A stretch of DNA of 64,000 nucleotides, taken from a virus. Taxonomy: Duplodnaviria > Caudoviricetes. Below are positions 5,623 to 49,700 of the stretch, piece after piece. A program made the position numbers and the translations under genes. The notes beneath the pieces are model-generated. The model had not been told where the DNA came from and did no database searches. It worked only from the letters and a program-made list of their open reading frames with translations. The stretch's first letter is position 1. Every line of letters begins with the position of its first letter. Location of the stretch: the IMG/VR virus record IMGVR_UViG_3300032007_000001, one strand, 5' to 3'.

Positions 5623-6834
5623 TTAATCTACTAATTTCGAAGAATTTTTCTTAACATCTAAGAATTCCAAATTATTAAATTCTTCCTTATCAAATATAGA
5701 ATATAAATGTTTGATGTGATGTTGGAAAACAATATCGCCTTTAACAGTTGGTAATTTATTTTCTAATGCCAATTTTGCTTGTGAGGCAATATATTTTCCG
5801 AAATTAACTGGTACACCTTGCGCCATTGCTTGATATACTGGAATATTGCTTTTTCCAGAGAAATCAAATTCTTCCGGGTACCCCATAATCGCTGCAGATT
5901 CTTTTATATTCAAACAGCGATTTTTATGAGGATGTATATATTCATTAACAGAAGTAAAGGATGGAAAAAGTTTATCATCTTCTAACTTATGTGGTGTTTT
6001 GTCCCAATAATTTTTATTATTTGACATTCTGTCCATGATACGCACTAATTCTTTATAATGTTTAGTGTTTTTCATGTAATTTATTATATTATCTTTATTT
6101 GTTCCTCGTAAACATTGTTTTGCTAATCCTGTCATCAATGAAAAATTCGGCAATGCATATTGATACATTTCTTTTATAGAATCACATGACTTACTGAAGT
6201 TATCTTCTACATCACTTTTAATTGTGCTTAATACATCCTTTACAGTAAGCTGCTTTTGTTTGTCTTGATGGATGAGAGGGATTTCTGTGAAGTTGTCTTT
6301 ATTCCATCCAACTACCATTGTGCGTAAACGTTTCATTGCAACTTCATGGTTTCCGGCATAATCTCTTAAAATAGTAAAATTATATTGGTCGGAAAGTTGA
6401 TTTACTAAATCCTTAAGAATTGGAAAACCAAGTTTTATTAAAGTTGGAGCATTTTCTATTACGAAAATCTTTGGCTTTACTTTCTTAAAGATATTAAATA
6501 ACCGATAAAAATGTACGTTGTTTTTTCCATCTACTGAAGCATTTCTATTAATTTGTGATAAACTCGAACATGGACAATTACAGCACATTAAATCTACATC
6601 TTTTAATGAAGTAAGATATTCATCATTTTCCCATTCATCTGGTAAAATTACGGGAATATCAAAATTCTGCATAAAATAAAATGCATTTTCTTGTGGCTGA
6701 GTATTTGATATTTCTAATACCCTATCTAAATGAAAGCCCGCTTTCATAACACCAATAGAAAAACTACCGGCAAAAATAAAAGCATTAACGGCCTTAAATT
6801 TAGAGTTTGGATTTAATTTATCCAGTGGTTTCAC
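5623..6834 (-). CDS. DNA (cytosine-5) methyltransferase
   Basis: motif I variant FIFAGSFSIG, catalytic PC (NCPCSSLS), ENAP, RLR, C-terminal ESAAIMGYP. Confidence 0.85.
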   Translation of the reverse strand: MKPLDKLNPNSKFKAVNAFIFAGSFSIGVMKAGFHLDRVLEISNTQPQENAFYFMQNFDIPVILPDEWENDEYLTSLKDVDLMCCNCPCSSLSQINRNASVDGKNNVHFYRLFNIFKKVKPKIFVIENAPTLIKLGFPILKDLVNQLSDQYNFTILRDYAGNHEVAMKRLRTMVVGWNKDNFTEIPLIHQDKQKQLTVKDVLSTIKSDVEDNFSKSCDSIKEMYQYALPNFSLMTGLAKQCLRGTNKDNIINYMKNTKHYKELVRIMDRMSNNKNYWDKTPHKLEDDKLFPSFTSVNEYIHPHKNRCLNIKESAAIMGYPEEFDFSGKSNIPVYQAMAQGVPVNFGKYIASQAKLALENKLPTVKGDIVFQHHIKHLYSIFDKEEFNNLEFLDVKKNSSKLVD

Positions 6835-32886: not shown

Positions 32887-32915
32887 TTTACAATTTCGAA
32901 TTTCTGTGGTATAAT
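32887..32915 (+). promoter_or_regulatory. promoter for the tRNA-like gene
   Basis: TTTACA-N17-TATAAT with TGTGG. Confidence 0.85.
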
Positions 32916-32932: not shown

Positions 32933-33007
32933 CCGGATATGGTTCAATGGTAGAATGTGTGTTCGTATGAATGCGAGATATGTGTTCGATTCACATTATT
33001 CGGACCA
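32933..33007 (+). tRNA. tRNA-like RNA with aberrant anticodon arm (identity undetermined)
   Basis: acceptor CCGGATA/TATTCGG, A73, encoded CCA, D arm GTTC-AATGGTA-GAAT, T arm ATGTG-TTCGATT-CACAT; 8-nt loop TCGTATGA. Confidence 0.8.
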
Positions 33008-33040: not shown

Positions 33041-33069
33041 TTTACAAACTTGGAAATTTATGATATAAT
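33041..33069 (+). promoter_or_regulatory. promoter for the large ncRNA
   Basis: TTTACA-N17-TATAAT with TG. Confidence 0.8.
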
Positions 33070-33074
33070 CTAAT

Positions 33075-34075
33075 CACAGTCAAAGAACAAACAAACATAA
33101 ACCAAACCAATGAAATGTATTTGAAGGAGGTGTTCATCTTCTAAAGAGTGAACATTCGAAAAATCTAAAATTGAAATCAGCAAAAAAGAAAGAGAGAAAA
33201 GTAAAATGAAGAACATGGAGTACGGAAAGCACGCCGGGCGGTTTGAGACCGCTTAATCTCTAAAAAATTTAAATTAAAAAATTAAAGGGAATTGCTACCC
33301 TGATGAGTTATCGGATGCCGCGAATAAACCTGGCGCAACACGTCAATGGTATCGCGGTCGGCAATCCAGGACCACCGAAGCAAAATCTAAAAAGGATAAA
33401 TAGTAAAAATGCGACGATGTAAAAAGAACTCCTGAGACGATAACAGGACATAAACATCTGAAAAAACATTAGAATAAATATAATTTGAAAAAGAGCCGGC
33501 CGGTCCATCGAAGGCCCGACCGGCCACAGCGGGGGAGATTCCCCGGATAATAGCGGCGGACATGCCAACGTGCGCAACAGCCGCAAAGACCGCACCATGA
33601 AGAGTGCAAAACAGAAGCCAAACTATACATGCTTCGGAAAGGAACACATATCGATGGCTAAAATCGACTACGGTTAGGTACTTTAACTACTAATAAATTG
33701 AAAAATTTAGCGAGACGCCGAATTTGCCAATGGCCGCATTTGGCTAGAACGACTAGCAACTTGGCCCGAAGATATGGCAAAAGCGAAACGACAAGGAAGA
33801 AGTCATAAAAACCGTACACCTAACCGCCGGGGAGAATTGCAAAAGTGGTTGCAAACATTTTTGCATGGCTTAAGAGAACGCAATCCTGTTATTTTTGGTG
33901 TTAGACAGGAAATGCATCTAGTGCGGAAGATTGAAGGTGATGGAGCAGCCTTCACATTGGTGAACGCCATAAAGAAAATCCCAATGGTAAGTCTCCCAAG
34001 TCCGAAGCGTGGTTCTCAGTGGGAACGCATAGCTCGGCAAGCGCGGCCTTGCTAAGAGCGGTCGCGGAATATGAA
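33075..34075 (+). ncRNA. candidate large ornate ncRNA
   Basis: ~1 kb GC-enriched region with no credible long ORF; dense hairpins and pseudoknot-type pairings between promoter and terminator. Confidence 0.7.
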
Positions 34076-34077
34076 AA

Positions 34078-34106
34078 AAACCGACGGATTAATCTCCGTC
34101 GGTTTC
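34078..34106. terminator. terminator hairpin
   Basis: AAACCGACGGA-TTAATC-TCCGTCGGTTT. Confidence 0.85.
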
Positions 34107-46729: not shown

Positions 46730-49700
46730 TTAGCAAATGCATGGCATTTTTACATGTTGATTATTAATATGGTCTTTTTGTCCGCATACTGGACATTCGT
46801 TGTCAATGATTCCATTATATCCGCAATTACTGCATCTATCAATTGGATGATTGATAGCACAATATGTGCAATCATAATCATGCATTGTTCTTACAATTTT
46901 TTCAAATGCAGATAAATTCTTAGTTGGGTCTCCATCCATTTCTACATACATAATGGCGCCAGCATTACATAATGCATGATATGGAGCTTCAATTCTAATT
47001 TTATCAATTGCTTTAATTGGATAATATACTGGAACATGGCTTGAATTTGTCATATATTCTTTATCTGTTACACCTTTTATGATTCCATAATGAGCCTGGT
47101 TGCTTCTTTGGAAACTACCAGCTGTAGATTCTGCAGGTGTAGCAAAAACAGACCAATTCAAATGTGTATCTTTAATATACTTATCAGTCATTTCTCTCAT
47201 ATGACCAATAATTTCCAATCCAAGTTTTTGAGATTCTTCTGATTCACCATGATGTTTTCCAGTTAAGAATTTTAAGCATTCTGCTAATCCACAAAAACCA
47301 ATACTTAATGAAGCATGTTTCAATATTTTTTCTATTGTGTCATTTGGTTTAAGCTTTTCACTATCCATCCAAACTCCTTGACCAAGCAAGAATGGATAAT
47401 TATAAACATGGCGTTTACCGATTAAATGATATCTCCAAAGAATTTGATTCTTTGCTAACTCCATATATTTATCAAGAAGTTTATAAAATTCCTTTATATT
47501 TTTTTGAGATTCAATAGCTAATTTTGGAAGATTAATAGTAGTGAATGAGAAATTACCGCGACTTGTAACAATTTCTGGACCGTTTACATTGCTAATCGTG
47601 CGCGTTCTGCAACCCATTGTCGCGATTTCAGTACGTGGGTCATCCGGTTTATAATATTGTAAGTTATATGGAGCATCTACATTTACAAAATTTGGGAATA
47701 AACGTTTTGCTGAAACTCTGATAGCTAATTTGAATAAATCATAATTTGGGTCTCCGGGATTATAATTTATTCCTTCTTTCATTTTGAAAACAGTAATTGG
47801 AAATATTGGAGTTTCACCTTTTCCCAATCCTTCTTCTTGCGAAAGTAAAAGTTTTTCTGTTACAAGTCTACCTTCTGGCGATGTGTCTGTTCCAAAATTC
47901 AAAGAACTAAATGGCGTTTGTGAACCGCAACGGCTATGCATAGAATTCAAATTGAAAATAACGCTTTCCATAGCTTGATACGTTTCATCTTCAATTTGTT
48001 CGCATGTATTTTCGTATACTTTATTCAAAAAATCATAAATTATTTCTTCAATTACATTGAATTTATCACTTAACTTTTTTGATAATTCTTTTAAACATTC
48101 ATTGTTAAGATATGTTGGATAATTATTTTCAGCTATTTCTAAAACTTTATCATTATCATAGTTTGTGTATTTTAAAGCAGCTTTTAAGTTTTTCTTAAAG
48201 TCTTTTTTAAATGATTTTCTAACGCCTTCCGCCATGCCATAATCAAAACAAGCAATGCTTTGGCCTCCAAATTGGTCCGTGTTATTCAATCGATATCGCT
48301 ACTATCGACCAGTTCTCTTATGAACTTCATGTGCTTTCACACATAGACTAGACTATATCATTCTCGCCATATATCTTAAAAAAGATACTTAGGTTTTGTC
48401 CCCCACTTCTCAGGCGCTTGCCCAATAAAAGCATTTCAGCTTATAGTCGTTGAGGTTTATTCTGTTCGAATCTTACCTGCTGATTTCCCAATCCTTAAAC
48501 TTTTTAAAGCATTTGCGTTTGAGCTTATTTCATCTCTCCGATTTAGCATTAAGGCTCTAAGGGCGTTCCAGCATTTCAAGGGAATGCGAGTAATATGTTT
48601 CCATATTAAACGAACAAATTTTTATTTTGGTTGCTTTGTCATTATTACCGTCATTTTCATGATATTTAATGCTCAATTAAGAGCCGGATTAGACTATCTC
48701 ATTACCCTCGTTTAACGTTAGGATTAATAGAGTCTACCTATTAATAGTAAAACTATATTTTACTGTATTGTGCACTTCGATTTAAGGGGTTTTCTCCCAC
48801 CAATATTTCAATTGGCCCTACTCCTATTGCGGAGACCAATCCGCTAAAGGATAGTCGTTACACTTTTATATTACATTAATTCAATTATATCTTTAATCAT
48901 ATATTTTTGTCTAATTTCTGGTTGTGCTATAATATTTTTTATTGTGCTTAAATGATAATTTTTATTTAGTTTTTTATTTATTGCTTTTATCATTTCTTTT
49001 CTTGTATGAATTATTGCTGACGTATTATCTGTAAAGATGATTTTTCTTGTTTTTGCTGCTGGATTTCCAGCGCCAGAATTTGTTTGTGAAACTATTTTTC
49101 TATGTTCTTCTGTCATGTGACTTCCTAATCTAGTCGGTCTATAATTAAGAACTTGGTAATTATATTTCATATTTTTCGAATGTGTTGTCCATTCTAAATT
49201 TAAGTAATGATTATTTCTTTTATTTCCGTCTAAATGATTAACTTCTAATTTTTCATTATCTTTTTTACAAAAAGTTTCAGCAACAATTCTATGTACCAAA
49301 TATACATTACAACATACATAACCAGAGTTATTTATTCTGAAAGATAATTTTCTTTTGTTTTTATAATCGTAAACAAATGTTCCTTCTTTATTTACAAAAA
49401 GCATTTTGTATTTTTTTGAATTATGTAATATACTTAGCACGGTATTACCAGCTATCCATTTCTGGACCTTAGGTTCTCTTACGAAGCTCATTGGTTATTA
49501 ACTCCTACCGTTAGCATGAGAAAATTTCTCACACACCCCATATTGGGTTCACACAATTTTTTCTGAACATGTTTCCATGTTAGGCCACACATTTGTTTAT
49601 GGCAATACACGCGAGCGCTGCATAAGAACGAATTGATTGTGGTTCTCTTATCCAACCGTTGCCAGTAGAAAATCCTCCATGAAATAATTTAAGAATATCT

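Follow-up and report, generated by a model that had tools for sequence, protein, structure and literature searches.

The window analysed here is a stretch of 64,000 nucleotides (nt) that corresponds to bases 65438-129437 of a 504,279-bp IMG/VR virus record (IMGVR_UViG_3300032007_000001, hereafter G000). The record is rated complete, has a GC content of 29.7% and carries 18 tRNA genes and a transfer-messenger RNA (tmRNA) gene, the latter placed by ARAGORN at record positions 6105-6468, away from the locus considered here. The stretch turns up in sequencing runs of gut samples from cattle, sheep and goats, and G000 is an uncultivated rumen megaphage. Its genes have canonical ribosome-binding sites of the AGGAG/GGTGA type, and its host is probably Firmicute-type. 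At 33076-34105 of the window, probably on the plus strand, lies an RNA locus of about 1 kb with its own promoter and terminator, a body of conserved local hairpins and no conserved protein-length reading frame. All coordinates below refer to the plus strand of the window unless another record or strand is named.

The locus stands out by composition, with a GC content of 0.40-0.51 over 33200-34100 compared with 0.23-0.30 in the flanks, and with a plus strand far richer in A than in T, much as the first-pass annotation had described it (a GC-enriched island with A-rich linkers). Taken over 33076-34105, the GC figures are 0.43-0.51 and, for the flanks, 0.27. That annotation had also proposed a promoter and a terminator belonging to the RNA itself, and both were located. 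A sigma-70-type promoter at 33041-33069 consists of TTTACA, a 17-nt spacer and TG-TATAAT, matching 11 of 12 consensus positions, and an intrinsic terminator at 34078-34105 combines an 11-12-bp GC-rich hairpin with a T tract; the terminator is bidirectional and common to the convergent minus-strand genes beyond it. The predicted transcript would thus run for about 1.03 kb from 33076 to 34105. About 64 promoter sites of this type occur in the G000 genome and many in that of a kin phage, G001; the family in these two phages reads T[AT]TTTAC[AT], 15-18 nt, TA[TG]AAT, and is often preceded by AAAAAGGTA. Further islands of 1-2 kb with up to 52-60% GC, in a genome of 30%, occur at record positions 272951-279000, 326901-329200 and 445201-448500, and one of these coincides in part with a tRNA-Pro call that is unusually long (98 nt).

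Relatives of the locus were sought through its neighbours. The kin megaphage G001 (416 kb) was found in IMG/VR via its RecA, which is 78% identical, and its synteny with G000 is clear: a gene of 521 amino acids (aa) and a few small genes are followed by a gene-free gap of 1-1.7 kb and then by a convergent pair of small genes, one of about 75 aa and the other of 110-121 aa. Further contigs covering the locus were collected through homologs of the flanking proteins. L036 carries a true homolog of the window RNA with about 76-80% identity across its full length, and L040 another with about 80% identity overall, its 3' half being about 97% identical and its 5' half diverged. L041 (95% identity) and L042 hold homologs of the 3' part. 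The main comparison set the G000 RNA against L036, L040/L041 and L042, all from ruminant metagenomes and 70-80% identical to it, giving three full-length lineages and a fourth represented by the 3' part. L036 and L040 keep the promoter, and each of L036, L040 and L042 has an equivalent terminator.

No protein-length open reading frame (ORF) accounts for the locus. All three stop codons occur repeatedly in each of the six frames of the island, and hence no alternative genetic code opens a frame there. The longest plus-strand ORF, a basic one of 93 aa at 33774-34055, could in principle be a protein gene behind a long 5' leader, its length being the point in its favour. Among 5.8 billion clustered proteins it matches itself alone, however, and it has neither a relative in IMG/VR nor a Pfam match; it lacks a start codon and is frame-shifted by indels in L036, and it is broken by a 2-nt insertion after codon 5 in L040 and L041, whose DNA is about 97% identical there. 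Frame-breaking indels in such close homologs already refute this protein, and we leave it practically no chance. A 39-aa ORF at 33303 meets a stop at codon 6 in L036 despite DNA that is about 93% identical, and the minus-strand ORFs of the island have no Pfam match. No ORF of at least 39 codons stays open in the homologs, and the conserved frames are those of 7-17 codons only. The RNA encodes no conserved protein-length ORF. The earlier description of a non-coding RNA of about 1 kb holds in that this is a separate unit, free of conserved protein-length ORFs and found in RNA libraries, and needs amending for three tiny ORFs that are conserved and for a 5' stabiliser-like module.

Sequence conservation along the RNA is strongly uneven. 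Measured in 40-nt windows, identity to L036 is 80-100% over 33120-33475 (100% over 33376-33435), 85-93% around 33616-33695 and 80-88% around 33796-33875, with 60-75% in the GC-rich hairpins of 33476-33600 and 38-47% in the 3' tail (33996-34095). The flanking coding DNA of the same pair is 74% identical. The A-rich linkers are better conserved than the GC stems, and the lineages, when folded independently, give the same hairpins at homologous places. These comparisons support a view of the RNA body as local hairpins arranged in a row, with conserved A-rich linkers between them.

The core of the RNA is a nested set of helices at 33286-33367 that is seen in independent folds of three lineages. 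It comprises GGG/CCC (33287-33300), GGAT/ATCC (33313-33316 with 33364-33367), CGCGA/TCGCG (33319-33323 with 33352-33356), then ACC/GGT and an inner GCG/CGC. The helix GGAT/ATCC covaries, being GAAT/ATTC in L036, and of the originally proposed stem GCCGCGA/TCGCGGT the inner 5 bp CGCGA/TCGCG are kept and the outer pairs are not. A near-invariant A-rich block at 33376-33466, conserved also in L040, contains the second tiny ORF and a hairpin TCCTG/CAGGA (33430-33448); this proposed stem is invariant in the homologs and hence offers no variation to test. The variable GC-rich hairpins of 33495-33607, with 60-75% identity and indels, resemble expansion segments: their positions are kept, with compensatory and G-U changes in L036 and shortening in L040. 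The proposed stem GGCCGGTC/GACCGGCC is kept, with compensatory or wobble changes, in a slightly different register, GCCGG.CGG/CCG.CCGGC. At 33614-33677 a module runs from a hairpin GAAGC/GCTTC through the Shine-Dalgarno (SD)-like GGAAAGGAAC (33636-33645) to the third tiny ORF, and the combination of hairpin and GGAAAGGA recurs in L033 and L034, two contigs of kin and more distant phages described below.

The 3' domain (33826-33992) contains hairpins A (33838-33865), B (33884-33910), C (33932-33954) and D (33955-33986), of which A and B each carry an additional 3-bp outer helix. In hairpin A the stem varies among G000, L036 and L042 and the loop GGTTGCAAAC, which holds the palindrome TTGCAA, is invariant. 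Hairpin B behaves in the same way, with stems TCCTGT/ACAGGA in G000, CCATC/GATGG in L036 and TCTAGT/ACTAGA in L042 around an invariant loop TTTTGGTGTT. Hairpin C has a variable loop on a stem that reads TGAAGG/CCTTCA in G000 and L036 and TGGAAG/CTTCCA in L042. The stems TGCAAAA/TTTTGCA, TGAAGG/CCTTCA, CATTGG/CCAATG and CGGGG/CCCCG, all named in the first reading of the sequence, are kept in homologs with compensatory or wobble changes. Beyond the 3' domain the sequence is variable: the tail has a different hairpin in each lineage, L036 and L040 have about 100 extra nt, and the element once taken for a 3' pseudoknot (34042-34066) is a plain GC-rich hairpin in this tail, which differs in every lineage.

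Several comparisons support selection on the hairpins. The minimum free energy (MFE) of the region is lower than that of dinucleotide shuffles (z = -2.3), as is that of its complement (z = -4.1), and because the minus strand also beats shuffles, folding energy alone does not tell the strand. When the 253 observed substitutions were set on the G000 sequence, the energy was -227.5 kcal/mol, compared with -200.5 +/- 8.8 kcal/mol for the same substitutions moved randomly within 20 nt (z = -3.1; reached in 0 of 80 permutations and, on repetition, in 0 of 100). Permuting the substitutions globally yielded z = -3.4, and the test in the opposite direction z = -2.6; the two convergent coding genes, treated alike as a control, gave z = +1.0, +1.1 and -0.3. 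The substitutions cost 17 kcal/mol on the plus strand and 29 on the minus strand, and the smaller loss weakly favours the plus strand. For the 3' domain, the four lineages were aligned to a covariance model of 33826-33992 with the four main hairpins, two of them with their short outer helix (six helices in all). Of its 37 pairs, with 97.3% of cells paired, 8 are changed on both sides; shuffles gave 3.4 +/- 1.2 such double changes (0 of 500 reached 8) and controls with slid partners 0-1. As a caveat, many of the single changes that are compatible with pairing go from G-C to G-U or from A-U to G-U.

The more elaborate architecture first suggested for this RNA did not fare as well, as no multi-stem junction or pseudoknot survives the comparison of homologs and an ornate fold is not supported. 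L040 contradicts the crossing pair GTTATCG/CGATAAC, since its 5' side reads ATAGCGCG there and its 3' side is unchanged. CCTGG/CCAGG is contradicted by both L036 (TCGAA) and L040, and it is the adjoining GGAT/ATCC that covaries instead. In L036 the long-range pairing CGGTTAGGT/ACCTAACCG gives a mixed picture, with two wobble-compatible changes and two breaks.

Near the 5' end of the RNA, at 33123-33155, the SD-like GAAGGAGGTG (33123-33132) runs into a hairpin formed by 33130-33140 with 33145-33155. It is a perfect 9-nt SD match and has no start codon at working distance: in G000 there is no ATG, GTG or TTG 4-12 nt downstream, the sole GTG lying within the SD itself. The SD-like stretch AAGGAGGTG is 47 nt from the RNA start, and its counterparts are AAAGGAGGTG in L040 and AAAGGGGGGTG in L036. 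In G001 and L033, whose RNAs are otherwise unrelated, GAAAGGAGTG is followed by the same ATCTTCTAAA, which pairs there with a different partner. The STAB-SD of Bacillus thuringiensis cry3A is likewise an SD-like sequence near a 5' end that does not start translation and can pair with the 3' end of 16S rRNA, and in Bacillus it binds the 30S subunit and blocks RNase J1 (PMC4113751). The phage element shares the position near the 5' end, the lack of a start codon, the conservation across lineages and an extended complementarity to the 16S 3' end, the last on the assumption of a standard anti-SD, from which the host 16S may differ. Unlike the cry3A STAB-SD, which belongs to a long mRNA, it stands at the head of a non-coding RNA and leads directly into a hairpin. 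By this analogy, the 5' module is probably a STAB-SD-like stabiliser.

The sequence occurs in runs of 18 studies, of which six runs are recorded as RNA, and roughly 20 ruminant runs (X5-X24) contain parts of the locus. In metatranscriptome run X3, which comes from another study than the likely source sample, a single contig of 894 nt corresponds to 33081-33974 with 0 mismatches; it lies entirely inside the RNA and begins 5 nt past the start predicted from the -10 box. Run X14, from a third study, has contigs covering 33238-33495 (2 differences) and 33946-34077 (11 differences, 5 gaps). A search for transcripts had been proposed with the original annotation, and metatranscriptome contigs do cover the RNA. 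Their presence in RNA libraries is support for expression, not proof of it. RNA-run contigs are lacking over the flanking genes, and this was set aside as unusable for an argument about differential expression.

Within the RNA are three tiny ORFs whose start, frame and stop are preserved in each of the three full-length lineages. ORF-i (33206-33256) encodes MKNMEYGK and a variable tail in 16-17 codons, and its 3' half overlaps the hairpin 33237-33253; its first eight codons have three variable sites, all synonymous (GAG/GAA, TAC/TAT and GGA/GGC/GGT). ORF-ii (33409-33435) encodes MRRCKKNS within the invariant A-rich block, and its sole variant, 33414 A>T in run X14, changes CGA to CGT and is synonymous. 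ORF-iii (33654-33677) encodes M(A/I)KIDYG behind GGAAAGGAAC, has a synonymous TAC/TAT change and has its start in a hairpin TCGAT/ATCGA. ORF-ii and ORF-iii are each preceded, at a distance of 9-12 nt, by an SD-like sequence, and ORF-i has only the weak match AGAAAGAGAG; in L040 the SD of ORF-ii is altered from AAGGA to GGTGA and is still SD-like. Over the constrained parts of the three ORFs there are about 7 synonymous changes and 1 non-synonymous change, which are small counts. Peptide-level selection would give such a pattern, with the same reservation about numbers.

Around ORF-iii, the sequence GGTTAGG (within 33672-33690) overlaps the stop codon and could pair either locally with TTTAACT or distally with CCTAACC at 33819; the local partner is CTAACT in L036 and in run X5, where a G-U pair becomes G-C. 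This alternative pairing may be a switch coupled to translation. Elsewhere, L033:15165-15510 contains three SD-led copies of a frame M(TM)YTSGF(V/I), and one copy differs from another by 6 bases in 4 codons, all synonymous and including TCA to AGC (serine). A mini-ORF ending in KHTSGFT lies at L036:1385-1426 (minus strand) in an insertion with no counterpart in G000. The whole genomes of G000 and G001 contain no TSGF frame of this kind elsewhere.

The slot occupied by the RNA is filled in different ways among relatives. G001 and its close kin L033 have another RNA body behind the same promoter type; their RNAs share a recognisably homologous 5' region of about 170 nt with the window RNA, and BLASTN of the RNA against G001 returned the promoter consensus as its sole match. 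In L034 the slot holds two protein genes after a 290-nt GC-rich leader; in this more distant relative (L034:7036-7900) the leader contains GAAAGGAAC and the genes encode 125 aa (Cys/Gly/Tyr-rich) and 84 aa. L039 and the contig of P0007 have no gap at the slot and lack the RNA, and the L047 and L048 contigs end before it. The RNA is accessory, since the locus is so variable (the RNA absent, replaced by another body or replaced by protein genes), and it is restricted to one clade of ruminant megaphages. BLASTN in distant mode against 50,697 GenBank phage records gave no match to the RNA region, and the exact patterns GGGAATTGCTACCCTGATGAG, AAACCTGGCGCAACACGTCAA and GACGATGTAAAAAGAACTCCTG had no occurrence in IMG/VR, JGI metagenomes and 185,579 species genomes, respectively. 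The 93-aa ORF, a 383-aa gene and the 521-aa gene, used as single queries, retrieved no related loci. On the P0007 contig (ENA ERZ1029112) a block of four genes comes after the 521-aa gene, with matches to PgaA-barrel/TPR, polysaccharide deacetylase, glycosyltransferase-2 and PgaD, and the block resembles a poly-N-acetylglucosamine (PNAG)-type exopolysaccharide operon carried by a megaphage.

Upstream of the RNA, at 32933-33007, is a tRNA-like gene (Rfam tRNA, 43.8 bits) with its own promoter of the same type at 32887-32915. Its acceptor, D and T arms are intact, and ARAGORN assigns no anticodon, giving 'cgta' in an 8-nt loop. The proximity to a tRNA-like gene noted by the first-pass annotation applies to G000, yet in L036 and L040 the gene is internally deleted and no tRNA is called, and the RNA is retained all the same. 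In L036 it has lost 23 nt internally and its acceptor stem is still paired (1 compensatory and 2 wobble-type changes); in L040 only its first ~21 nt are left. The tRNA-like gene is a neighbour of the RNA, not a conserved partner. Its place in the kin phages G001 and L033 is occupied by a GC-rich RNA some 140-150 nt long (L025:1935-2080, minus strand; L033:14500-14665), which has the same promoter type, matches no Rfam family and is not called as a tRNA by ARAGORN.

Comparison with known RNA classes was made with the covariance models of Rfam 15. At the gathering score, cmscan of the whole window found tRNA as the only match; tmRNA, OLE, group I and II introns, RNase P, 6S and riboswitches, like all other families in that release, gave none, and the absence of group I introns extends to 46730-49600. 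This is the scan that the original annotation had called for, and its caution that the RNA could be assigned to neither GOLLD nor ROOL and might be a new class was well placed. With permissive filters and E up to 10, neither ROOL nor GOLLD appeared in the segment 32800-34300, where the matches were the tRNA and terminator look-alikes below threshold, and the homologs in L036, L040 and L042 gave no ROOL, GOLLD or any other Rfam family at E up to 1. A blank result from Rfam is in itself weak evidence. Other ideas were tried and rejected. A diversity-generating retroelement (DGR) template, a repeat or an antisense target was discarded for want of a second genome copy and of any sense or antisense match of at least 16 nt; a CsrA sponge with GGA motifs, on a hand count of about 20 GGA compared with about 22 expected from base composition; and a hammerhead-like CTGATGAG at 33300, as both a matching stem II and the GAAA are missing and Rfam gives no hit.

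RNAIII of Staphylococcus aureus is a long stable RNA with many stem-loops, whose conserved loops do work and which encodes a short peptide. The phage RNA resembles it by description only, as a long multi-hairpin RNA with peptide frames; there is no sequence relation, it has three peptides, all far shorter, and the phage genome contains no stretch of at least 16 nt that matches the RNA in sense or antisense. The bar minigenes of phage lambda are SD-led frames of a few codons in which translation matters and the peptide does not. The phage ORFs differ in having 7-17 codons with amino-acid-level conservation, and nothing points to peptidyl-tRNA drop-off. No description of this RNA was found in the literature searched, and we rate it as a new family within the known kind of large phage-associated RNAs.

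Our preferred reading, to which we give a probability of about 0.55, is that the locus produces, in abundance, a phage-encoded RNA of about 1.03 kb, belonging to an undescribed family, that works mainly as an RNA in the manner of a stable scaffold or sponge. A strong host-type promoter would fire at about 33076, and a 30S subunit would probably be retained by the SD-like sequence and its hairpin near the 5' end; if the host is Firmicute-type, the bound subunit would protect the RNA against 5'-to-3' decay as a STAB-SD does. The body would present at least 10 local hairpins separated by A-rich single strands, with stems that covary or change length and with invariant loops and linkers as the working surface, which may bind a host or phage factor or a second copy of the RNA. 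The molecule would then act as a stable scaffold or sponge early in infection, and the conserved tiny ORFs of 7-17 codons probably engage ribosomes. The anatomy of the unit, the lack of a conserved protein-length ORF, the conserved hairpins and the presence in RNA libraries are shown and count for this reading; the strand, the exact ends, the 5' stabilisation, the translation of the tiny ORFs and the scaffold or sponge role are inferred. Several results weigh against it. In a naive test on a MAFFT alignment, changed pairs of the G000 MFE structure were kept in 34-38% of cases, compared with 33% for random canonical pairs; MAFFT displaces two arms of covarying stems by one base, for which reason independent folds and the covariance-model alignment were used. 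Those in turn draw on only three to four lineages, and the structure was derived from the same sequences with the alignment fitted to it, which inflates the pair counts. No long-range helix finds support in the comparison, and the locus of relatives does without the RNA (L039, P0007 contig), has another body (G001, L033) or has protein genes (L034). The contigs cannot show strand, ends or abundance, and carry-over of DNA into RNA libraries is possible. Finally, the near-exclusively synonymous variation of the tiny ORFs points to a function at the peptide level.

The last point is the basis of the strongest competitor, a micro-ORF messenger or dual-function RNA in which the short peptides, or the act of translating them, would be the point of the transcript and the hairpins would serve stability and translational control. 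We think this rather unlikely on balance. It gains from the three ORFs that keep start, frame and stop with nearly all variation synonymous, from the SD-like sequences ahead of ORF-ii and ORF-iii (in L040 too, where one is changed and still SD-like), and from the TSGF frames, which differ synonymously among copies in L033, recur in L036 and are otherwise missing from two phage genomes. The ORFs nevertheless make up less than 10% of the RNA, and the selection with the firmest support, which acts on the core and on the hairpins of the 3' domain, falls outside any conserved ORF; the peptides have 7-17 residues and neither an export signal nor a family match, the counts of about 7 to 1 are small, and ORF-ii is so nearly invariant that constraint on RNA and on peptide cannot be told apart there. 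The variability of the slot between the 521-aa gene block and the convergent genes, which differs or is empty among relatives, would also suit a transcribed filler or decaying remnant, for example of a degraded higher-GC gene, as would the visible decay of the adjacent tRNA-like gene and the varying length of the 3' tail and GC hairpins. This we regard as improbable, for a remnant would hardly show blocks of 95-100% identity between lineages whose flanking coding DNA is 74% identical, compensatory stem changes, invariant loops and folding energy preserved against permutation, nor would it be expected in RNA libraries of several studies; no fragment of it resembles any protein family. More remote still is a very divergent ROOL (RF03087) or GOLLD (RF01998) beyond detection by the covariance models. 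ROOL, first discovered in data from the cow rumen, often lies close to tRNAs and within prophages and has an average length of 581 nt (PMC5737381). The phage RNA is likewise large, phage-encoded, obscure in function, GC-rich with A-rich linkers in an AT-rich genome, from the rumen and, in G000, beside a tRNA-like gene. The analogy is weakened because the tRNA link, its basis, is not conserved, the gene being deleted or degraded in L036 and L040. In addition, neither the 1.5-kb segment nor the three homologs match the models, only local hairpins are supported where ROOL and GOLLD have multi-stem junctions and pseudoknots, SD-led tiny ORFs are present, and the RNA is longer than ROOL (about 1.03-1.2 kb) and confined to one megaphage clade. 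A hint toward a homo-oligomer, as in the ROOL and GOLLD RNA cage, would come solely from the palindrome TTGCAA in the invariant loop GGTTGCAAAC.

There is a further proposal, tentative and with the odds still against it: the RNA would be a stable carrier of exchangeable, SD-led micro-ORF cassettes of 7-17 codons that are gained and lost between megaphage lineages, with the peptides or their translation being functional. The cassettes would be MKNMEYGK..., MRRCKKNS and M(A/I)KIDYG in the window; in relatives they would be (Y/H)TSGF(V/I/T), of which L033 has three copies and L036 has one. Its output may be, for example, signalling peptides or a minigene-like capture of particular tRNAs, and the covarying hairpins and palindromic invariant loop may organise or multimerise the carrier.

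Phages have yielded few large non-coding RNAs, all obscure in function, and this candidate of about 1 kb adds one from uncultivated rumen megaphages. Its narrow distribution and accessory status limit the generality of any lesson drawn from it. It offers evidence of expression, four natural lineages, defined hairpins whose invariant loops lend themselves to mutation and a putative 5' stabiliser open to testing, and its synonymous-biased tiny ORFs raise the less expected option that a structured phage RNA may double as a carrier of micro-peptide genes.

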